Assembly (NCBI GenBank): GCA_001794025.1
Contig: MGJA01000003.1
Location: 12,909 to 76,908, forward strand
Direction of reading: 5' to 3'
DNA: 64,000 nt
Source of the DNA: Candidatus Yanofskybacteria bacterium RIFCSPHIGHO2_01_FULL_41_21
GTDB taxonomy: Bacteria > Patescibacteriota > Minisyncoccia > 2-02-FULL-40-12 > GWA2-44-9
Shown: piece after piece, positions 7,072-55,433 of the stretch
Layout of the letters: each line of letters begins with the position of its first letter
How positions within the stretch are numbered: position 1 is the stretch's first letter
Position numbers and translations under genes: made by a program
Notes under the pieces: generated by a model
Databases searched by the model: none
Told to the model about the DNA's origin: nothing
What the model saw: the letters and a program-made list of their open reading frames with translations, nothing else

Positions 7072-7243
7072 CACAGCGACCAACACCCTAACCCCCAGCG
7101 AGAAGTCGCGGAGGTTCCGAAGCTAGGATTATGTCGATGGGTGCGGAAGACATAATCCGAGGTGCTTGGTGAGGAACCGAGCGGTCTAGATAAAAACCTG
7201 CCGCTGGAGCAGGTTTATTATCGGTCGAGTCGGGGGTTGGGGT
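7072..7243 (-). repeat. MITE-like repeat copy B (172 bp), inverted relative to copy A
   Basis: Reverse complement is identical to 4827-4998. Confidence 0.9.
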
Positions 7244-9028: not shown

Positions 9029-11290
9029 TTAGCTTACTGGCTTATTATCTTCATCTTTCTTAGGTTTACCATATTTTTTTACCGGTTTTTGTGGTTTTTC
9101 CTTCCAAGTTTTCAGTGCCTCTTGTAGTTCGGCTTCGCTTTCGGGTTTTTTACCCATCAGGAAAGTACAATCGGGCCAACGAGAACAGGCGTAAAAAAGT
9201 TTACCTCGGCCTCGAGATTTTTTCTCAACTACTTCACCCGTAAGACAATTTGGGCATTTAAAACCGGTTTTGGTAAAGATTTTAGAAATGCCCTTACAGG
9301 TCGGGTAATCAACACAACCCAAAAAATATCCAAAACGTCCGCGTTTTACTTCCATTGGTTTACTGCAGATAGGACAGAGCTCGCCTTGGGTTTTCTCTTG
9401 AAGTTCTTTAATCTTAGCTGCTTCTTCGGGGAGGGGAAGGGAGACCTTACTTCCTGGTTCGGGACAAGCGAGGAATTTACCCATTCGGCCAAATTTCACC
9501 AGCATCATTTTACCACAATGAGGACAGGGGGTAGTGGATTCAACGATAAGCTTTTCAACACTTTCCGTTTTTTCTTTTAGGTTTTTACTGAACGGGGCAT
9601 AGAATTCTTCAACGACCGGAATCCACTTTATTTTGCCTTCGGCAATGTCGTCAAATTCTTCTTCAATGTGAGAAGTAAAGTTAATATCAATAACTTCGGG
9701 AAAATTTTCAACGAGCATGTCATTAACCGAAAAACCAATTTCGGTGGGTTTATATTTTTTATCTTCTTTTTCCACATAACCTCGGTCTTGAATAGTGGTG
9801 AGAGTGGGGGCATAAGTGGAGGGGCGACCGACACCGGCGGATTCAAGGGTTTTAATGAGGGAAGCGTCGGTATATCGGGGAGGCGGTTCGGTGAAGTGTT
9901 GGTCTTTGGCGAGGTTAATCAGATTCAGTAATTCTTTTTCAGATAATTCCGGAAGTTGACCCTCTTCGTAAGAGTCCTCTTCACTTTTTTCATCTTCTTC
10001 TTTGGTTTCGGTATAAGCCCGAATAAAGCCATCAAATTTAACGGCTTGGCCGTTGGCGCGGAAAGTATATTTTGAACCAGCTTGCCCTGAGCTTGTCGAA
10101 TAGGCACTGATATCGGCGGCGGTTTGATCAAGAATAGCGACTTGCATTTGGCAGGCGATAGTTCTTTTCCATATTAAATCATAAAGACGGAGTTGACCCG
10201 AGTCCAAATTTTTATCTAGTTGGTCAGGTAGGCGAGATAGGTCAGTCGGCCGAACGGCTTCGTGGGCTTCTTGAGCGCCTTTGGACTTATTTAAAAACGA
10301 ACGGGGTGCATCAAGACAATACTTGGCACCGAATTCTTTTTTTATAACTTCTTGGGCTTGGGCAAGGGCGATTTCGGAGATATGTAAACTGTCGGTACGC
10401 ATGTAAGTAATCATGCCCGTTTCATATAATCGCTGGGCGAGAGTCATAGTTTGTTTGGCCGAGAACCCCAGTTTTTTAGCGGCTTCTTGTTGAAGGGTGG
10501 AAGTTGTAAATGGTGCCGGCGGAGTTCGGCGGACTTCTTTTTTAACTACTTCAATAACTTTATATTCGGCGCCAGTGAGTTCATCAGTTATTTTCTGGGC
10601 GTCGGCGGAGTTTTTAATACCTAAGCGGTCAATTGATTCTTCTCCTATTTTAACAAGTCGAGCTTTAAAAGTTTTGTCCTCGTCTTTTTTGGAAAGATCA
10701 GCTTCAACGGACCAATATTCTTGGGGTGTGAATTTTTGGATTTCTCGTTCGCGTTCAACAATAAGACGGACGGCGACGCTTTGGACACGACCGGCAGAAA
10801 GTCCGGCTCGGATTTTTTTCCACAAAAATGGAGAGAGTTTGTAACCGACGAGTCGATCAATAATACGTCGGGCTTGTTGAGCGTCAACAAGATTTTGATC
10901 AAGTTCTCGTGGATTAGCGATGGCTTTTTCAATTGCCGGTTTAGTGATTTCATGAAAAACGACTCGTTCTGTTTTGTGGGCAGTTGTTTTCTTATCTAAA
11001 CCAAGAGCGTGGGCTAAATGCCAAGCGATGGCCTCGCCCTCACGGTCAGGGTCGGTTGCCAGAATAACCATATCGGCTTTTTCCGCATCTTTTTTAAGTT
11101 CGCTGACAATTTTTTTGGCTTTAGTCGGAATTATATATTCGGGCTTAAAATTGTGGGCGATATCAATACCAATGCCTTTTTTAGGTAAGTCACGGATATG
11201 ACCAAAAGACGATTTAACAATAAAATCTCCGCCGAGGAAGCGGGAAATTGTTTTAGCTTTAGTTGGCGACTCAACTATTATTAGTTGCAT
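9029..11290 (-). CDS. topA: DNA topoisomerase I
   Basis: Toprim N-terminus MQLIIVESPTKAKTI, catalytic region 'YMRTDS', and three C-terminal Zn ribbons. Confidence 0.9.
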   Translation of the reverse strand: MQLIIVESPTKAKTISRFLGGDFIVKSSFGHIRDLPKKGIGIDIAHNFKPEYIIPTKAKKIVSELKKDAEKADMVILATDPDREGEAIAWHLAHALGLDKKTTAHKTERVVFHEITKPAIEKAIANPRELDQNLVDAQQARRIIDRLVGYKLSPFLWKKIRAGLSAGRVQSVAVRLIVEREREIQKFTPQEYWSVEADLSKKDEDKTFKARLVKIGEESIDRLGIKNSADAQKITDELTGAEYKVIEVVKKEVRRTPPAPFTTSTLQQEAAKKLGFSAKQTMTLAQRLYETGMITYMRTDSLHISEIALAQAQEVIKKEFGAKYCLDAPRSFLNKSKGAQEAHEAVRPTDLSRLPDQLDKNLDSGQLRLYDLIWKRTIACQMQVAILDQTAADISAYSTSSGQAGSKYTFRANGQAVKFDGFIRAYTETKEEDEKSEEDSYEEGQLPELSEKELLNLINLAKDQHFTEPPPRYTDASLIKTLESAGVGRPSTYAPTLTTIQDRGYVEKEDKKYKPTEIGFSVNDMLVENFPEVIDINFTSHIEEEFDDIAEGKIKWIPVVEEFYAPFSKNLKEKTESVEKLIVESTTPCPHCGKMMLVKFGRMGKFLACPEPGSKVSLPLPEEAAKIKELQEKTQGELCPICSKPMEVKRGRFGYFLGCVDYPTCKGISKIFTKTGFKCPNCLTGEVVEKKSRGRGKLFYACSRWPDCTFLMGKKPESEAELQEALKTWKEKPQKPVKKYGKPKKDEDNKPVS

Positions 11291-17773: not shown

Positions 17774-17798
17774 AAAAGCTCCCTTGCGGGAGCTTTTG
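17774..17798. terminator. Intrinsic terminator hairpin (rnhA 3' end, abutting the rnpB 3' end)
   Basis: AAAAGCTCCCTTGCGGGAGCTTTT. Confidence 0.6.
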
Positions 17799-17800
17799 GT

Positions 17801-18171
17801 CTTGTAAACAATAAGCCGAGTTCTGTTCCGCTAGTTAGCGGAGGGTAACCATTTATCTGGTCTCGGCATTACTGCCGGACTCAAGCGATCTACTTATAAC
17901 TCACAGCCGAAGCTGTAAGCTTTGATCTTGCACCCCGATAAGTGTTTAGCCGTTTCACTCCCGATCTTTTAACCCTGATCGGAACTAAGCTGTAACCTTT
18001 GATAAATCAATGGTCTGGGTTTAGCTCGCCCTTACTTTCGCTTAGGCCGTCTCTGCTCGCAACTCTCGCGTCACCGCGGACGGGAATTACCCGCTATCGT
18101 TTCCGCCTCATCGGCAGATGGTGCTCGGACTTTCCTCTCCTTAATCCATAAGGACTAAGGAGCGATTACCT
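17801..18171 (-). ncRNA. rnpB: RNase P RNA (bacterial type)
   Basis: On the minus strand, the P4 halves GGAGAGGAAAGTCCGAGC and ACAGAACTCGGCTTAT are present. P1 is CTTGTAAAC pairing with GTTTACAAG at the termini. Length ~370 nt. Confidence 0.8.
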
Positions 18172-18275
18172 AGTTTACAAGATAATACAATTATACTCTT
18201 TTTTGATATCAAAAGCAAACTCAACAGATTGAAAAATAACATAGGACATGATAAAGTTAAATACGTCAAATGAAT

Positions 18276-18348
18276 CCCGTACGAAGTCACGCTCGTCGAG
18301 CTTAGCTCGACGAGTCCGAAGGACCTTGGCGGGGATACTTTGTACGGG
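18276..18348 (+). ncRNA. Palindrome-ended structured element (family CCCGTTAGAAGT) copy 1, abutting the ATG of the sugar-transferase gene
   Basis: Outer stem CCCGTACGAAGT/ACTTTGTACGGG, inner hairpin CGCTCGTCGAGC-TTA-GCTCGACGAG, and conserved GAGTCCGAAGGACCTTGGCGGGG. Shares architecture with covarying bases with 54417-54484. Confidence 0.5.
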
Positions 18349-19743
18349 ATGAAAAAAGCTGATTTATTTTTTAATGTTATTCGTCTCCCTATTGATTTTG
18401 GGATGCTTCTCCTTGCCGGTTTAACCGCCTATCTTTTACGTACTCAAATTTTGGCTAGTTTACGGCCTGTATATTTTGAACTCAATCTACCGCTGATTAA
18501 TTATATGTCGCTGGTGTTATTGGTGGCGCTGGTCTTTATCTGTGCTTATGCCGTATCCGGTTTATATTCAATGAAGGTTCGTATCGGTAAGGCCGAAGAA
18601 TTATTAAAAATTATTGTGGCTTCTTCGGCCGGAGTCATGTTGGTTATTATATTTATCTTTTTACGACAAGCGTTGTTTAATTCCAGATTCTTGGTTTTAG
18701 GTGCTTGGTTTTTAGCAATTATTTTTGTTGCAATCGGTCGGTTGTTAATTAGATATTTTCAACATGTAGCCGTGACTCGCTATAATTTCGGTATTCAGCG
18801 TGTAGTATTAATTGGTAACGACATAGTTGCTCAAGGATTGAAGGATCAACTTACTAAACATCCCGATACGGGTTATCGAATCATTGCCCATTGGGAAACA
18901 CCTCAACTTGAGTCCTTGGCTGAATTTGGGGATACGGTAGACGAGGTCCTATTGATTACACCCAGTTATGCCGATGTAACGGTTATTGATTTAGTTGATT
19001 TCTGTCACGAACATCATATTGTTTTTAAATTTGTTCCTAATTTGTATCAAACCCTGACTAAACATTTGGACGTTGATACAATCGGTGCGGTGCCGGTAAT
19101 TGAACTCAAACGCACCCCGCTTGATGGTTGGGGGAGAGTTTTTAAACGGGTGATTGATATTATCAGTGCCAGTGTGGGGTTAATAATTTTCTCACCCATA
19201 TTTCTTATTGTTGCGATTTTGATTAAGAGCGAAACGTCTGGGCCGGTTTTAATTAGACAGGAAAGGGTAAGTGGTAAGAATAAATTCTTTCTCCTTAAAT
19301 TTAGAAGTATGATCGCCGTGGATCCGGACGGATCGGCTGATTCATTAAAGGAAGGATTATTGGAACTCAATGAACGACAAGCCGGCCCTCTTTTTAAAAT
19401 AAAAAATGATCCAAGAGTAACAAAAATAGGAAGGTTTATCCGGCGGACGAGAATTGATGAATTACCTCAATTTTGGAATGTGTTGAAGGGCGATATTTCT
19501 CTTGTGGGGCCACGACCGCATCTTCCGAATGAAATAAATAAATACGAAAAACATCACAAAAAAGTTCTGGCCATTAAAGCCGGTGCGACGGGTCTGGCCC
19601 AGATTTCCGGCAGTTCTGACCTGGATTTTGATGAGGAAGTGACACTGGACAGCTTTTATATTGAGAACTGGTCTATGAGTATGGATTTAAAAATTATCTT
19701 TTGCACTATCTTTAAGATGTTGCATGACCACTCGGCAGTGTAG
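18349..19743 (+). CDS. Polyprenyl-phosphate sugar phosphotransferase (bacterial sugar transferase, WbaP/EpsL-like)
   Basis: C-terminal catalytic domain KFRSM...GPLFKIKNDPRVTKIGRFIRRTRIDELPQFWNVLKGDISLVGPRP with N-terminal TM helices. Confidence 0.85.
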   Translation: MKKADLFFNVIRLPIDFGMLLLAGLTAYLLRTQILASLRPVYFELNLPLINYMSLVLLVALVFICAYAVSGLYSMKVRIGKAEELLKIIVASSAGVMLVIIFIFLRQALFNSRFLVLGAWFLAIIFVAIGRLLIRYFQHVAVTRYNFGIQRVVLIGNDIVAQGLKDQLTKHPDTGYRIIAHWETPQLESLAEFGDTVDEVLLITPSYADVTVIDLVDFCHEHHIVFKFVPNLYQTLTKHLDVDTIGAVPVIELKRTPLDGWGRVFKRVIDIISASVGLIIFSPIFLIVAILIKSETSGPVLIRQERVSGKNKFFLLKFRSMIAVDPDGSADSLKEGLLELNERQAGPLFKIKNDPRVTKIGRFIRRTRIDELPQFWNVLKGDISLVGPRPHLPNEINKYEKHHKKVLAIKAGATGLAQISGSSDLDFDEEVTLDSFYIENWSMSMDLKIIFCTIFKMLHDHSAV

Positions 19744-25582: not shown

Positions 25583-25738
25583 CCCTAACCCCCAGCGAGA
25601 AGTTGCGCAGGTCAATTTGCTTTAGCCAATTGACGAACCCCCGAAGCTTGGTGCTTGGTGAGGGGGCGAGCGTCTAGATAGCGCCGAGTCGCTGGAACGA
25701 GGTGACTATCGGTCGAGTCGGGGGTTGGGGGCGGAGCT
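25583..25738 (-). repeat. MITE-like repeat copy C (diverged; same family as 4827-4998 / 7072-7243)
   Basis: Shares ends CCCTAACCCCCAGCGAGAAGT... and ...TATCGGTCGAGTCGGGGGTTGGGG with copy B. The centre is diverged. Confidence 0.7.
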
Positions 25739-38483: not shown

Positions 38484-38600
38484 GCGGATTAGCTAAAAAA
38501 GTGACACTCTCAAGTAGTGTCCATTTTATCCCTTTTTAGCCTGCCTGAGACGCTTCGTTTGTGATAAGATTTGGATAATTAACCTTTCAATAAAAACTCA

Positions 38601-39066: not shown

Positions 39067-39462
39067 ATGAGTGAACAAATATCAACGCCGGAAAAAGTAT
39101 CTAGAGAGCAAGCTCTCGCTATGTATAGAAAATTTGTAGAGCGTGGAATTACCAGTCCCGATGCTTTAGATTTGAATGATCCCGAAGTTATTGAAGCGAA
39201 TAAACTATTTGAAAAATGGGACGCGCAAGAGAGTGTAAAAGGAGATTTTGAAAGGCATAATTTTGAAAAGACCAAGTTTTATGTTGATGCTGGATTTACC
39301 GACTCTAATTATCTTGGGGATGTTCTAGGATGGCTCTTTCAAGATGCGGGAGATATAGAAAAGCAACCAGATAATCCCACTCGAGTTCAATTGCGAAGCG
39401 ACTACGCAAAAGAGATAAAAAAGATCAGGGACTTATTGGGCTTGGCCACCGGTGGGAATTGA
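39067..39462 (+). CDS. Hypothetical protein (131 aa)
   Basis: ORF preceded by intergenic modules M1/M2. No motif recognised. Confidence 0.45.
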   Translation: MSEQISTPEKVSREQALAMYRKFVERGITSPDALDLNDPEVIEANKLFEKWDAQESVKGDFERHNFEKTKFYVDAGFTDSNYLGDVLGWLFQDAGDIEKQPDNPTRVQLRSDYAKEIKKIRDLLGLATGGN

Positions 39463-39492
39463 GCCGACAGTCGGCTCAATTCCCACCATTTG
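39455..39492. repeat. 38-bp perfect palindrome GGTGGGAATTGAGCCGACAGTCGGCTCAATTCCCACC (copy 1); identical copy at 42567-42603
   Basis: Exact duplicate 3.1 kb away. Followed in both cases by TTTGAGCCGAT... and CCGAGACACGTTGCTA modules. Confidence 0.8.
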
Positions 39493-39577
39493 AGCCGATG
39501 CTGTTATTGATCAAGGTGGTGTTCAGCTAAGGTTAGACGGGTTATTCCGCCTGAGACACGTTGCTAGTTTAAAATTT

Positions 39578-40798
39578 ATGAAAAATATTCCATTTACAGA
39601 AAAACAAATTAGAGATTTTGTAAAAGATCATCCAACGCCATTTTATGTTTATGATGAAGATGGAATTCGCCATTCTGCCCGGAAACTTATCGATAGTTTT
39701 TCGTGGAATTCTAGTTTTAAAGAATTTTTTGCGGTTAAGGCAACTCCAAATCCAAGTATCTTAACTATTCTAAAAGAAGAAGGTTGTGGCGCTGATTGTA
39801 GCTCGTTTCCAGAATTGCTTCTTGCTGAACGTGTAGGAATACGAGGAGAAGATATTATGTTTACCTCAAATGATACGCCAGCTGAAGAATTCAGAAAAGC
39901 TAGTGAACTTGGTGCGATCATTAATCTAGATGATCTTTCCCATCTTGATTATTTGGAAAAAGAAGTTGGCTTACCAGAATTAATCAGTTTTCGCTATAAT
40001 CCCGGATCTTTAACGGGTAATGTTATTATCGGGACACCAAAAGAGGCAAAATTTGGGATTACAAAGGAACAATTACTTGAAGCATACCGGATCGCAAAAG
40101 AAAAAGGAGTGAAACGTTTTGGTCTCCATACGATGATTGCTTCCAATGAGCTTAATCCACAACATTTTATAAATACAGCGGAGATGATTTTCGATATTGC
40201 CTTAGAACTGAAAGAAAAAATTGGAATCAAAGTGGAGTTTATTAACCTGGGTGGTGGGTTTGGAATTCCTTACAAACCTGAGCAAGAAGAGCTTGATCTT
40301 TCCGTTGTGTCGGAGGGAGTCCAGAAACTCTATGAAAAAATGGATATGGCACCAATAAGGTTATTTTTTGAGAGTGGTCGATACATTACTGGTCCGCATG
40401 GTTATCTTATTTCCCGTGTACGCCATATAAAGAACACCTACAAAAAATACATTGGCCTTGATGCTTCAATGGCAGATCTTATGAGACCTGGAATGTACGG
40501 TGCATATCATCACATCACCGTTCTCGGTAAAGAAAAAATGCCATACGATGTAACCTGTGATGTGACAGGTTCATTGTGTGAAAATAATGACAAGTTTGCT
40601 GTCGACCGCAAGTTACCTGAAATAAACACTGGAGACATAGTCATCATTTATGATGTCGGGGCCCATGGCCACTCGATGGGGTTTAATTATAACGGTAAAC
40701 TTAGATCTTCAGAATTTCTACTCGGATCAAATGGTAAAATGAAAATAATACGTAGAGCAGAAACTATAAATGATTATTTTGCAACCTTAAATTTTTAG
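39578..40798 (+). CDS. Fold-type III PLP-dependent decarboxylase (DAP / ornithine / carboxynorspermidine decarboxylase family)
   Basis: TPFYVYDE ... FFAVKATPNPSILTIL ... GGGFGIPY motifs of the Orn/DAP/Arg decarboxylase family. Confidence 0.65.
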   Translation: MKNIPFTEKQIRDFVKDHPTPFYVYDEDGIRHSARKLIDSFSWNSSFKEFFAVKATPNPSILTILKEEGCGADCSSFPELLLAERVGIRGEDIMFTSNDTPAEEFRKASELGAIINLDDLSHLDYLEKEVGLPELISFRYNPGSLTGNVIIGTPKEAKFGITKEQLLEAYRIAKEKGVKRFGLHTMIASNELNPQHFINTAEMIFDIALELKEKIGIKVEFINLGGGFGIPYKPEQEELDLSVVSEGVQKLYEKMDMAPIRLFFESGRYITGPHGYLISRVRHIKNTYKKYIGLDASMADLMRPGMYGAYHHITVLGKEKMPYDVTCDVTGSLCENNDKFAVDRKLPEINTGDIVIIYDVGAHGHSMGFNYNGKLRSSEFLLGSNGKMKIIRRAETINDYFATLNF

Positions 40799-40902
40799 CT
40801 CCGTCCGAAACGTGTAGTTTATGATAAGATTTGGATAGCTACTAATTGCCTTGCGGGGCTTGACCGTTTGACGGTTCCAGCTCGAAGTGATTCAGTATAA
40901 TT

Positions 40903-42448: not shown

Positions 42449-42566
42449 TAAATAAAAATAACTTATAAATTCTGCTCGAGGCCTGTCATTTATGATAAGA
42501 TTTGAATAGTTAACCCTTCGATAAAAACTCAGGGTAATAAACACTCTGTAGGGCCTGTCGCTGGTG

Positions 42567-42603
42567 GGAATTGAGCCGACAGTCGGCTCAATTCCCACCA
42601 TTT
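42567..42603. repeat. 38-bp perfect palindrome (copy 2)
   Basis: Identical to 39455-39492. Confidence 0.8.
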
Positions 42604-42646
42604 GAGCCGATACCGTTCTGGTCTGGTCCGAGACACGTTGCTAAAT

Positions 42647-52853: not shown

Positions 52854-53088
52854 TAAACATTACTAAGATTATATTAACCATTAGTAATGTTTATAAAGAA
52901 GCGTTGTGTTGCCTTGATTCATTAACTTAAGAAGAATATAATCTATTTATACATGAGAAAAACACTTATCTTTTTAGTCGTTGTAGTCATAGTCATTGTG
53001 ACTGTGGTTTTGGTTATGACTAGGTATGCTACGGCGCCAGGGAATACACCCGTTTTAACGTCACCATCAGTCCAACAATAACAATAAT

Positions 53089-53193
53089 CCCGTTAGAAAT
53101 TAACCCTATGGGAATACCACATAAATCTTTAATCAAACTACTTGCCAGTTCCACAGTGCAAAGTGGTGGATGGTTTGTAGAATTTCTAACGGG
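53089..53193 (+). repeat. Palindrome-ended element copy 2 (CCCGTTAGAAATT...AATTTCTAACGGG), abutting the ATG at 53194
   Basis: 13-bp terminal inverted repeats. Interior differs from copies 1 and 3. Confidence 0.6.
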
Positions 53194-53778
53194 ATGAAAT
53201 TATCCATGCCCCACATTCCTAAACTTTTTATTCCGCTCGCTTTTGTTATGGCCATGTCTATGGGATTGGTTTATGTTGTTGTCCAGCAAAATTTTAGAGC
53301 GAATGCGAATGACCCCCAGATTCAATTGGTTGAAGATTTAGTGGAACAACTATCAGCCGGTCGAACCGTGGAGTCCATTAATACAAGCGCTGGGGTTGAT
53401 ATGGCCCAGAGCTTGTCCCTCTTTCTTTTTATTTATGATGAGACCGGTAAAATGGTTGTCGGTACAGGTAAGCTTGATGGTCAGTATCCAACCTTACCGG
53501 ATGGTGTTTTGGAACGTGCCAAAGAGGTCGGTGAGAACAGAATTACCTGGGAACCTCAATCCGGTTTACGATTTGCGTTGGTTATTATTCCGTTTAGTGG
53601 GGATCAATCAGGATTCGTTGCTATTGGACGTTCCCTTCGAGAAGTTGAACAACGGATAGACATGCTTGGTCTCCAAGTGTTGGTTGTCTGGCTTATCGGT
53701 CTTCTCGGGTTATTTATTCTGATGGTTGGTGGAAAAATTATTTTTTCCAGATACTTTTCCAGTAAACAAATCGTATAA
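53170..53778 (+). CDS. Hypothetical membrane/secreted protein
   Basis: N-terminal TM and C-terminal TM. Alternative start ATG 53194 immediately after the element 3' arm, as for the other copies. Confidence 0.5.
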   Translation: MVCRISNGMKLSMPHIPKLFIPLAFVMAMSMGLVYVVVQQNFRANANDPQIQLVEDLVEQLSAGRTVESINTSAGVDMAQSLSLFLFIYDETGKMVVGTGKLDGQYPTLPDGVLERAKEVGENRITWEPQSGLRFALVIIPFSGDQSGFVAIGRSLREVEQRIDMLGLQVLVVWLIGLLGLFILMVGGKIIFSRYFSSKQIV

Positions 53779-53933: not shown

Positions 53934-54368
53934 ATGATTACCATTGATGATTTTAAAAAGATAGAACTTAAAGTTGGTCGTGTTTTAAACGCTGAACCAA
54001 TTGAAGGTTCGGAAAAATTGTTAAAGTTGCAAGTTGATTTAGGAGAGCCAAACCTGCCTGCCGGCAGGCAGGTTTTAGCGGGCATTGCTAAACATTATCA
54101 ACCGAGTGAACTTGTCGGTCGCCAAATTGTGATTATCGCTAATCTTGAACCTCGGATTTTCAATATTAATATAAAGAATGATGGTCCCGTTAGAAGTAAG
54201 ACGCCAGAGGCGTCTGCCGACCATGCCTCCGATGCAGGTCGGACTTCTAACGGGATGGAATCTAACGGTATGGTTTTGGCAGCATCGGGTCCGGCAACTG
54301 CCGGAGGTGAGCTCGTTTCCATACTTATGCCCGACAAAGAGTTACCTCCCGGATCAAGTGTTCGATAG
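53934..54368 (+). CDS. CsaA/Trbp111-like tRNA-binding domain protein, interrupted in frame by two palindromic insertions
   Basis: IDDFKKIELKVGRVLNAEPIEGSEKLLKLQVDLGE...VIIANLEPR...MESNGMVLAAS tRNA-binding fold. 26-bp palindrome at 54050-54075. Element copy at 54186-54254 adds PVRSKTPEASADHASDAGRTSNG. Confidence 0.65.
   Translation: MITIDDFKKIELKVGRVLNAEPIEGSEKLLKLQVDLGEPNLPAGRQVLAGIAKHYQPSELVGRQIVIIANLEPRIFNINIKNDGPVRSKTPEASADHASDAGRTSNGMESNGMVLAASGPATAGGELVSILMPDKELPPGSSVR
54186..54254 (+). repeat. Palindrome-ended element copy 4 (CCCGTTAGAAGT...ACTTCTAACGGG) inserted in frame inside a CDS
   Basis: 12-bp perfect TIRs. 69 nt = 23 codons; the reading frame is maintained. Confidence 0.7.
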
Positions 54369-54416
54369 TGGTTGTTTTTATTTAAATTTGTTATATTAGG
54401 ACTAAGATTTACGTAT

Positions 54417-54484
54417 CCCGTTAGAAGTCCCGCTCGCGACCTAGTCGCGAGTCCGGAGGACCTTGGCGGGGCTACTTCTAACGG
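54417..54484 (+). ncRNA. Palindrome-ended structured element copy 3, abutting the ATG at 54486
   Basis: CCCGTTAGAAGT/ACTTCTAACGG outer stem, CGCTCGCGAC-CTA-GTCGCGAG hairpin, and GAGTCCGGAGGACCTTGGCGGGG. Covaries with copy 1. Confidence 0.5.
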
Positions 54485-54485
54485 T

Positions 54486-55433
54486 ATGGATACTAATTCA
54501 CAAATAAGTCGTTCTACGCCAAGAGATGTGTTTCTATATTTGTTGGGTTTGATTACACTTGTGATGAGTGCCGGCAGTTTTGGAATGCTTATTTATCAGT
54601 ATATTGATATTATATTTCCCGATGTTCTGCAGTACAACTATAGCACTCCAAGCGCAAACTATAGTTTAATTAGAACTGCGTTGGCAGTTCTCGTGGTTGT
54701 CTTCCCTGTATTTTTCTGGGTCAGTAGAACTTTACACAAAGATGTTGTATCCGAACCATCCAAACGTGATCTTCGTGTTCGTCGCTGGTTATTATCTTTT
54801 ACAATTTTAGTCGCCGGTCTAGTTATCATAGGTGATTTAATCACTTTGATCCAAAACTACTTGAATGGTGATTTAACCACAGCATTTATTTTGAAAGTTA
54901 TCACAGTGTTCTTTATCGCCGGTTCAACATTATTCTATTACCTCTCGGAATTACGTGATAGAACCTACCCTCGCAAGGCCTTTCAAATAGTTATTGTTGG
55001 TGTCGTTGTTTTATCCCTTGGCTACGGATTTTATCTTGCGGGTTCTCCAAAAAGTCAGCGTCTGGTTAGATTTGACGAGCAAAAAGTAAACGATCTCCAA
55101 ATGATCCAGAGTTACTTGGTTTCTAATTGGTGGCAAGTAAAGGGGTCACTTCCCAAAACACTTGACCTATTGAATGATCCAATATCCGGTTTCAGTGTCC
55201 CTGTTGATCCACAAAGCCAAGAATCATACGAATATATTTTGATTGGCGCTCGTGAATTTAAATTATGTGCAACGTTTAATCTTGATACGGTTAATCCCAA
55301 AGAGTCCGTTCCGGCGATATATCCGTACTATAATTGGCAACATGGCGCCGGCCGAGTTTGTTTTGATAGAACCATTGACCCGACGTTATATCCGGTAAAC
55401 CCAAAAGGTGAGCCAGTTCCGTTAAAATATTAA
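54486..55433 (+). CDS. Hypothetical membrane protein (4-5 TM)
   Basis: ATG right after the element. The track ORF start at 54372 is a TTG-initiated upstream extension that would include the element. Confidence 0.55.
   Translation: MDTNSQISRSTPRDVFLYLLGLITLVMSAGSFGMLIYQYIDIIFPDVLQYNYSTPSANYSLIRTALAVLVVVFPVFFWVSRTLHKDVVSEPSKRDLRVRRWLLSFTILVAGLVIIGDLITLIQNYLNGDLTTAFILKVITVFFIAGSTLFYYLSELRDRTYPRKAFQIVIVGVVVLSLGYGFYLAGSPKSQRLVRFDEQKVNDLQMIQSYLVSNWWQVKGSLPKTLDLLNDPISGFSVPVDPQSQESYEYILIGAREFKLCATFNLDTVNPKESVPAIYPYYNWQHGAGRVCFDRTIDPTLYPVNPKGEPVPLKY

Follow-up and report, generated by a model that had tools for sequence, protein, structure and literature searches.

A probable family of palindromic, start-codon-regenerating elements in Candidatus Yanofskybacteria and other members of the Candidate Phyla Radiation

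The genomes of the Candidate Phyla Radiation (CPR, or Patescibacteria) are seen as streamlined, with little mobile DNA. The current report concerns a 64,000-nucleotide stretch of the genome of Candidatus Yanofskybacteria bacterium RIFCSPHIGHO2_01_FULL_41_21 (contig MGJA01000003.1, positions 12,909 to 76,908 of the forward strand; hereafter the window), in which a preliminary description had noted two copies of a structured, RNA-like element lying directly before start codons. We find that the window holds four such elements, E1 to E4, and that they belong to a family (here the CPR element) with hundreds of sites in many CPR classes and in some Planctomycetota, including sites in the essential genes for SecA and CTP synthase. 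E1 to E4 are very probably copies of a non-autonomous, palindromic, transposon-like element, that is, a MITE (for miniature inverted-repeat transposable element), and not sensor RNAs.

The CPR element can be compared with several described systems. The REPs are extragenic sequences, each of which is itself palindromic, and they are not known to make a target duplication. REPINs (or REP-BIME, mobilised by RAYT, the IS200/IS605-like Y1 transposases) resemble the CPR element in their inverted ends, less conserved spacer and hairpin, as well as in their long persistence and in a strand or orientation bias that suggests a single-stranded intermediate; in contrast to REPINs, the CPR element has target-derived 4-nt repeats, which argue for insertion at a staggered cut. 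The Correia elements have terminal inverted repeats (TIRs) of 26 bp, a TA duplication, a length of ~100-155 bp, a site for IHF and a demonstrated susceptibility to cleavage by RNase III. Like the CPR element, these Correia or NEMIS elements of Neisseria are MITEs whose TIRs form a long hairpin in transcripts, which often lie immediately upstream of genes, which can carry promoter-like boxes and which are polymorphic between strains (PMC10969869). The CPR element differs from them in its 13-nt TIR, its duplication of the TGAA type and the manner in which it abuts and regenerates a start codon.

The Rickettsia palindromic elements (RPEs; Ogata et al. 2000, 2002, as summarised in PMC10969869) are likewise short palindromes of a reduced genome that lie in frame in unrelated housekeeping genes, are translated and have no known transposase. 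RPEs measure ~100-150 bp and have other sequences and other hosts; the CPR element is set apart from them by a 4-nt duplication, 13-nt TIRs, an addition of exactly 75 nt, an occurrence in many CPR classes and Planctomycetota, and a strong link with start codons. The account of RPEs in PMC10969869 mentions none of these distinguishing features, the comparison being one of descriptions only. The riboswitches and thermometers of Rfam 15 share with the CPR element a compact, multi-helix, covarying fold directly 5' of an AUG, whereas the CPR element matches no Rfam family, has no regulon, appears mobile and occurs also within coding regions. In its ends, its start-codon-regenerating duplication of the TGAA type and its CPR-wide spread it is unlike RPEs and Correia elements. 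No description of it was found in literature searches on the TIR sequence, on MITEs with CPR or start codons, on leaderless Patescibacteria and on palindromic in-frame elements, and neither CPR nor start codons figure in the 2024 MITE review (PMC10969869).

The four elements of the window have a common outer stem (a search for its half-sites gave eight, against 0.76 expected, which delimit 18276-18348, 53089-53193, 54186-54254 and 54417-54485), and all lie on the + strand with an ATG directly at their 3' side. The two copies noted previously, at 18276-18348 and 54417-54485, are both real, and are E1 and E4 of this set of four; the outer stem is as then described except that it has 13 bp and not 12, the preceding T being paired with the A of the ATG. 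A 23-nt core, GAGTCCGRAGGACCTTGGCGGGG, occurs in exactly two copies, in E1 and E4 (0 expected), and a covariance model built from the subfamily-A alignment and run over the window with its filters off returned only E4, E1 and, weakly, E3 (scores in Table 1).

To define the ends we used a scan of metagenomes in which the arms and the P2 frame were the only fixed features and the flanks were left free. It gave at least 117 loci, and those listed contain 124 elements of subfamily A, of which 110 are unique with their flanks. In 109 of these 110 the base that precedes CCCG is complementary to the one that follows CGGG (T..A in 77, C..G in 32), so that the TIR measures 13 nt, YCCCGTWMGAAGT...ACTTKWACGGGR, and not 12. 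Immediately outside it the 4-nt flanks are identical in 69 elements and agree at three or four of the four positions in 90; the commonest duplications are TGAA (41), TGGA (12), TTGA (9), TAAA (8) and CAAA (5). A partition into a 5-nt duplication (ATGNN) and a 12-nt TIR was rejected, because the terminal pair tracks the sublineage of the element (T..A versus C..G) and not the target. An IS200/IS605-style guide was also looked for, but the mutual information between the tetranucleotide and the element columns reflected sublineage effects only (columns 1/90 and 15/73).

Insertion at a start codon converts ATGAA into ATGAA-T[element]A-TGAA: a 4-nt target, preferably TGAA or TGGA, is duplicated, the 3' junction always reads A or G followed by TGNN since the element ends in A or G, and the open reading frame (ORF) keeps an intact ATG. 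The fusion of the 3' arm to the start codon, which the preliminary description had remarked on, is a general property of the family and is explained by an element that ends in A and is followed by a TG-type duplication. Elements range from ~27 nt (minimal copies) to ~130 nt, with modes at 71 and ~108 nt, and no transposase gene lies inside them. The modal 71-nt element plus its duplication amounts to exactly 75 nt, or 25 codons, which are open in four of six frames (for example PVRSLARAKGASPKDLGEATSNG), and it is this length and this freedom from stops that let in-frame copies inside genes be tolerated. Collectively, the A-ending TIRs, the TGAA-type duplication and the 25 stop-free codons explain how such an element might persist in a genome of ~1 Mb with a coding density of 85-90%.

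Filled and empty versions of the same sites are found in relatives of the window, two proteins of which are 100% identical to P0001 and P0121. E1 is present in the window and in locus L129 and is missing from L128 (on the same contig as L119), L130 and L131; E2 is present in the window and missing from L119; E3 is present in the window, L122 and L250 and missing from L119; and E4 is present in the window, L119 and L122 and missing from L249. The syntenic relative L119 is 83-94% identical in DNA over 46.9-64 kb of the window, and the BLAST alignment with it halts at 53088 and restarts at 53194 around E2, and halts at 54154 and restarts at 54252 around E3. Each empty site holds a single copy of the target, which is GTGAA in L128, L130 and L131, ATGAA in L119 and ATGGA in L249. 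The empty E2 site of L119 reads ...caacaataaaATGAAATTATC, and its E3 site reads cgt tca atg atg ggc atg gaa, equivalent to the NLEP-RSMMGMESNGM of insert-free homologues; the gene of L249 that is orthologous to the one behind E4 starts ...aaaacATGGAAcaag. With the AT-rich extra sequence on its 5' side, E3 makes a net addition of 87 nt (29 codons) relative to the empty site, window 54155-54251 replacing L119 10222-10231 with the frame kept. The 5' duplication of E4 has decayed in the window (CGTA) and is intact in L122 (TGGA), where ATGGAT stands on both sides of the element in a sequence of ~75% nucleotide identity. L119 in turn has an element, ending at its position 21, that is missing from the window near 46.9 kb. 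The pattern of filled and empty sites therefore points to repeated gain or loss between genomes that are ~13% apart. With TIRs, a target-derived duplication, a small size without a transposase, multiple copies and insertion polymorphism, the elements show the features of a MITE, save for an autonomous element with the same TIRs (see below).

A second scan, of one genome per species, used the pattern CCCGTNNGAARTN{30,60}AYTTNNNACGGNATG, which sets most arm positions, and found at least 118 loci, nearly all of them in metagenome-assembled genomes (MAGs) of Patescibacteria from many classes. The hosts listed include Saccharibacteria, Nomura-, Kaiser-, Zambryski-, Yanofsky- and Moraniibacteria, Paceibacterota and Kazan, and among the matches listed there are also several Planctomycetota MAGs and one bin labelled Nanoarchaeota. 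The arm positions that the pattern leaves free (NN/NNN) are complementary. The 5' flank, likewise left free by the pattern, reads ATG/GTG/TTG-NN-T in 95 of the 123 elements listed (ATGNNT in 86) and echoes the 3' flank; at least five of six bases are identical between the two flanks in 86 of the 123. The interiors are mostly unrelated and AT-rich, with a few conserved subfamilies; many of the AT-rich interiors carry TATAAT-like boxes (50 sense versus 32 antisense), and many AT-rich members have a local hairpin on the 5' side that would free the 3' arm. The metagenome loci contain a further 23 elements of other subfamilies, 17 of them with a TG-type junction, and near-identical copies occupy two sites of one contig (L200). 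The preliminary description had named as its own refutation the case of two recent copies of a mobile palindromic repeat; insertions were indeed found, as members of an old and large family and not as two recent copies.

The mobility of the family is deduced from its footprints and not from a known enzyme, because the search for an autonomous parent, as a TIR pair 300-4000 nt apart enclosing a transposase in 1.9 Mb of fetched loci, had a negative outcome. One 901-nt candidate (L163/L204) encloses a membrane-protein ORF and no transposase. Elements of the IS1380 family have ends that start with CC and are accompanied by 4-5-bp duplications, and this family would be at most a lead for the parent. 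A phage vector was rejected, with just 4 matching stretches in 2.9 million viral contigs, as was a tRNA-like or tmRNA identity, ARAGORN yielding only four ordinary tRNAs.

In subfamily A the fold is a three-way junction composed of the outer stem, helix P2 and hairpins 1 and 2. Compared with shuffled sequences it has z = -6.1 for E1 and -4.3 for E4, and the reverse strands have z = -5.6 and -5.1. In an alignment of 118 subfamily-A sequences (117 distinct), set against 500 shuffles, 97.6% of the cells pair (88.7% in shuffles) and changes on both sides of a pair account for 247 cells (61 in shuffles); 13 pairs have changed on both sides, and none of the 500 shuffles reaches any of the observed values. 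Sliding the partner columns makes pairing fall to 30-50%. Helix 1, formed by the TIRs, is paired in 99.5% of cells, and the covarying pairs comprise all seven of hairpin 1, two of P2 and one of hairpin 2. The compensatory base changes reported earlier are therefore strong, and the second helix (CACGC or CCCGC with GCGGG) and the inner hairpin that varies in sequence yet remains self-complementary are as first described. The stretch formerly taken to be invariant and single-stranded is not single-stranded: GUCC pairs with GGAC in a covarying 4-bp hairpin (C-G to U-A), and GCGGG belongs to P2 as its 3' strand. The Shine-Dalgarno (SD)-like core GGAGGA/GAAGGA that was seen in this stretch spans the variable loop of hairpin 2, which reads GAA, GGA, GUA, AAA, UUU, CUU and otherwise in relatives, and it lies ~30 nt from the AUG and is not conserved. 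Invariant unpaired stretches are limited to the 3-5 nt junctions, and no unpaired pocket is conserved. The E3 subfamily has another layout (TIR-AAG-hairpin-CU-GCC...GG hairpin-TIR), in which nine pairs have changed on both sides. G-U cells number 68 against 49 A-C cells, 35 of the former coming from one pair, so that these counts leave the strand of folding undecided; because there is no clear G-U excess and both strands fold equally well, RNA is not identified as the selected molecule. We propose that the covariation reflects selection, or palindrome-correcting replication, acting on a hairpin needed for propagation or tolerance, and not the sensing of a ligand or of temperature.

In 97 of the 123 genome-scan elements listed, an ORF of 60 codons or more begins at the ATG that follows. 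A scan of 92 of the downstream proteins gave 126 unrelated Pfam families with a maximum of three members per family, and the products include Mur ligases, ribosomal proteins L4 and L9, aminoacyl-tRNA synthetases, release factors and RecA; as these genes are functionally unrelated, they do not constitute a regulon. The 110 elements of the metagenome set are distributed more widely: 35 mark the beginning of an ORF with 60 codons or more, 13 adjoin a start-like triplet whose ORF is short or truncated, 33 fall inside long ORFs and 29 elsewhere. When every qualifying frame is counted, the elements inside ORFs are read in sense 24 times and in antisense 12 times. A Pfam domain spans the in-frame insert in SecA and in a pseudouridine synthase, and the inserts of CTP synthase and a Na/Ca exchanger fall between domains or between domain repeats. 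The reading frame through E3 is conserved in three species, one compensating indel included. The junctions also differ between sublineages, those with GGCGAGG and GCGCG being mixed or mostly intragenic; the sublineage with GGCGGGG in P2 (ends T..A, with U.G paired at alignment columns 15-73) has the start-codon junction throughout, and E1 (A.G at these columns) and E4 (C-G) are its sister variants.

The consequences for gene expression depend on how the genes of such hosts are translated. An SD-like GGAG, GAGG or AGGA at -17 to -5 occurs before one of 58 crudely called ORFs of the window, against 5% of random positions, and a -10-like TANNNT ending 5-9 nt before the start occurs in 17 of the 58 (~29%, against 10% at random); over the family as a whole, the commonest position of -10-like hexamers is 7 nt upstream of the first ATG. 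These signals suggest that leaderless mRNAs may be widespread in the genome. In the relatives without E1 (L128, L130 and L131) the sugar-transferase gene is preceded by TTGAAA-17 nt-TACTAT/TATAAT-TTATATT-GTGAAAAAAGCC, and the position of this promoter, 7 nt before GTGAAAAAAGC, implies, judged by consensus, a leaderless mRNA. Insertion at the start codon would leave the promoter and the first ATG (ATG1) 5' of the hairpin and the ORF with a new ATG (ATG2). Of 51 elements with start codons on both sides, 31 can be read in frame from ATG1 into a 25-residue N-terminal extension, as in the database protein P0133, the L129 product annotated with a translated E1 and starting MNPVRSHARAKDASPKDLGGATSYG-MKKADL; ATG2 must be used in the other 20, which have no in-frame read-through from ATG1. 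Upstream ORFs that begin at ATG1 often end at a TAA in the 3' arm (20) or in an ATGA overlap (9) among the genome-scan elements listed.

In E1 (73 nt, the terminal pair apart) reading from ATG1 is out of frame and meets a TAG in the loop of hairpin 1; the ATG1 of E2 was apparently lost by a 6-nt deletion, as judged against L119, and that of E4 by substitutions (ACGTAT in the window versus ATGGAT in L122). Since ATG1 is out of frame or lost, the genes behind E1, E2 and E4 must initiate at the AUG that adjoins the hairpin. E1 would have added a short upstream ORF and a 5' hairpin to the mRNA of the sugar transferase, an effect that follows from the SD-less and often leaderless character of the genome. 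The TAAGAT before E4 predicts a transcript that begins at the foot of the hairpin, so that the AUG would come immediately after it, and E3 would have added 29 residues to a loop of the tRNA-binding protein. A practical outcome is that gene callers report false N-terminal extensions (MNPVRS...SNGM) or a wrong start.

The reading of the preliminary description, a riboswitch or RNA thermometer that masks the ribosome-binding region, can appeal to the stable fold, the strong covariation and the A of the AUG that is the last base pair of the stem. We nevertheless regard it as very improbable. With SD sequences before 1 of 58 ORFs and an SD-like motif placed in a variable loop, hosts that are SD-less and often leaderless have no ribosome-binding site to sequester; copies lie within ORFs and in intergenic DNA, they are present or absent in near-identical gene contexts, and as insertions they come with duplications and precise empty sites. 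The unrelatedness of the downstream genes and the lack of a conserved unpaired pocket also speak against a sensor, and the earlier statement that the element could not be matched to a known riboswitch class held when the whole window was compared with Rfam 15 (4227 families) at the gathering threshold, which gave just RNase P and tRNAs; in E-value mode (E up to 10) the best score over the elements was 17.7 bits at E = 4.8, that is, noise. A stable hairpin between direct repeats also calls to mind translational bypass, or excision at the RNA level, between the duplicated AUGNN, as in T4 gene 60 and the byps of yeast mitochondria, but this is scarcely credible here. The repeat consists of a fixed 4 nt and an element-borne base, with no matching of codons, the 5' side has T as its sixth base regardless of what stands on the 3' side (60 of the 123 pairs of genome-scan elements listed differ), no stop codon follows the take-off site or the first two codons, and the copies inside ORFs must be translated and not skipped because they keep their frame across species, including the compensating indel of E3. 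A palindrome that is imperfect, conserved at its ends and variable in the middle, and that has TATAAT-like boxes in many AT-rich interiors in the 50:32 ratio given above, might finally be a site for specific recombination, either attC-like as in integrons or an invertible promoter segment. This too is extremely unlikely: the arms, GTTAGAA...TTCTAAC, are the inverse of the RYYYAAC...GTTRRRY arrangement of attC, the flanking repeats change from site to site in the manner of target duplications, the host genes are syntenic housekeeping genes and not cassettes, and the orientation is too unbalanced for an invertible switch.

The MITE interpretation has its own difficulties, among them the failure to find an autonomous parent in the 1.9 Mb. 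In subfamily A the TG-type junction is on the + strand of the element in 60 cases and on the - strand in 10, so that the interior has a preferred direction with respect to junction and gene, and among AT-rich elements an xCGGGA motif lies near the 5' arm, and pairs with it, in 34 against 4 mirrored cases. All 31 members of the GGCGGGG sublineage have the ATG junction, 22 of them at ORFs of 60 codons or more and another 6 at start-like sites, whereas only 11 of the 515 RTGRA sites in the window (2%) are ORF starts and 77 are non-coding; target preference and neutral survival under-predict this excess. Orthologous E4 copies are identical at 68 of 69 positions in genomes whose flanks are ~75% identical, where a dead selfish insert should have drifted. 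E1 and E3 are common to relatives at 75-80% identity and absent from the closest ones at 85-90%, a distribution that needs recombination or loss; together with the finding that the promoter-plus-element segment of E1 is closer to L129 than the adjoining coding sequence is, it suggests allelic recombination between lineages. Some of these observations would be accommodated if an element that is a MITE by origin had become, in the start-codon sublineage of the E1/E4 type, a 5' module kept by the host, the hairpin of which stabilises an SD-less or leaderless transcript, tunes initiation at the abutting AUG or serves as a processing signal. The near-identity of E4, the ATG junctions, the fixed orientation, a U.G pair in P2, available only to the sense strand (35 sequences), the 5' local hairpins that would free the 3' arm and the changes within E3 copies (4 of 69 positions, all keeping pairing, in hairpin 2 as well) all argue in this direction. 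We consider such domestication rather unlikely all the same: E1 is dispensable, in that close relatives have the same gene and promoter without it, the downstream genes are unrelated, the U.G pair is a single inherited change, and deletion-protected persistence with template-switch correction of the palindrome could yield the same pattern without a function. Possible sources of the start-codon bias and the conservation are deletion-protected persistence at essential starts, template-switch palindrome correction, allelic recombination and co-option.

It is likewise doubtful that the GGCGGGG sublineage, with E1 and E4, is either a start-codon-homing element or a domesticated module kept by hosts across the CPR. 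In the homing case it would be targeted to the first bases of genes that are often leaderless and would rebuild the AUG with its own terminal A, and in the domesticated case a 5'-terminal three-way-junction hairpin would control the stability, processing or initiation of SD-less mRNAs. The start-codon sublineage, with a conservation above that of its flanks, offers a test case for the co-option of selfish hairpins as 5' mRNA elements where initiation proceeds without SD sequences. Screens for structured RNAs will meanwhile go on flagging hairpins of this kind as riboswitch candidates.

The positions of the elements, of their parts and of the adjoining features are collected in Table 1. Relatives of E2 are found at L136 and L160.

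Table 1. Positions in the window of E1 to E4, their component parts and neighbouring features
Feature	Positions	Strand	Description
Sugar-transferase promoter (predicted, by consensus)	18229-18257	+	TTGAAA, 17 nt, TAAAGT
E1 target duplication, 5' copy	18271-18274	+	TGAA; A18270 + TG gives the upstream ATG1 (18270-18272)
E1	18275-18349	+	Complete, subfamily A; 75 nt including the terminal T...A pair; covariance model 75.1 bits, E = 2.6e-16; between the promoter/first ATG and the real start of the sugar-transferase gene
E1 5' TIR	18275-18287	+	TCCCGTACGAAGT; partner 18337-18349, one G-T pair
E1 interior	18288-18333	+	P2: CACGC 18288-18292 with GCGGG 18329-18333
E1 hairpin 1	18293-18301 with 18305-18313	+	
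E1 hairpin 2	18314-18317 with 18321-18324	+	GTCC with GGAC; junction CTTG 18325-18328
E1 3' TIR	18337-18349	+	ACTTTGTACGGGA; final A is the A of the sugar-transferase ATG
E1 target duplication, 3' copy	18350-18353	+	TGAA, identical to 18271-18274; A18349 + TG gives ATG2
Sugar-transferase ORF	18349-19743	+	Starts at ATG2; homologues start MKKADL at the same ATG or GTG
E2	53088-53194	+	Subfamily C, ~108 nt; 81-nt interior unlike the other window elements; directly before the ATG (53194) of a 194-aa membrane protein; 5' duplication decayed, upstream ATG gone
tRNA-binding-domain gene	53934-54368		Contains E3 in frame
AT-rich extra sequence	54155-54184	+	5' of E3
E3	54185-54255	+	Subfamily B; encodes PVRSKTPEASADHASDAGRTSNG; covariance model 32.5 bits
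-10-like TAAGAT	54403-54408	+	7 nt upstream of the first base of E4; same hexamer before other window genes
E4	54416-54486	+	Complete, subfamily A, 71 nt; covariance model 89.6 bits; directly before the ATG (54486) of a DUF5671 membrane protein
E4 interior	54429-54470	+	P2: CCCGC 54429-54433 with GCGGG 54466-54470
E4 hairpin 1	54434-54440 with 54444-54450	+	
E4 hairpin 2	54451-54454 with 54458-54461	+	GTCC with GGAC

Several minor observations concern the sites of the elements and other members of the family. The 5' flank of E1 (18265-18275) reads GTCAA-ATGAA-T, compared with a single GTGAA in the empty sites, the additional five bases resembling a trace left by a previous insertion and excision, after which an element was inserted again. 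Just upstream of the TTGAAA box, L128, which is without E1, has another GC-rich and hairpin-rich segment (~2880-2960, ...ccccgatgcttcggtcgggg...), at the position of which L129 and L131 have simple terminator-like hairpins. In L249 the loop of the tRNA-binding protein (P0022) that corresponds to the site of E3 holds a different palindromic in-frame insert (1722-1805, ...CGACAAGCTCAGGGTCGCCCTGAAGAACTTGAAGGGCGACTTAGCTCAGGG...), so that this loop appears to be a recurrent landing site for unrelated hairpin elements. Minimal copies, made up of two 12-nt arms and a 3-nt loop with short direct repeats still flanking them, occur at L084 3690-3716 and L126 3963-3989. Subfamily-A elements in L164 (~9375-9465) and L165 (~1240-2182) have nested within them an element with variant TIRs (CCCGTTAGAGAT...ATCTCTAACGGG), and these subfamily-A elements recur several times in what looks like a repetitive gene.

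Elsewhere in the window, the RNA of RNase P (bacterial class A, 133.9 bits) is encoded just upstream of E1, at 17797-18181 on the - strand, as a separate gene that leaves much of the model, P12 among other regions, unaligned or with other sequence in its place. Another perfect palindrome, GGTGGGAATTGAGCCGACAGTCGGCTCAATTCCCACC followed by TTTGAGCCGAT, is present in two copies (39451-39505 and 42563-42617; 96% identity) and may represent a second repeat family or a terminator family. A motif ...TTTRTGATAAGATTTGRATA... recurs upstream of three genes (38528-38600, 40788-40841 and 42459-42531); it includes the -10-like hexamer TAAGAT that is also found before E4 and other ORFs, and is likely a shared promoter or operator. 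A 59-nt direct repeat ending in CTATCGGTCGAGTCGGGGGTTGGGG is present at 7184-7242 and 25672-25730, the two copies having 78% identity.

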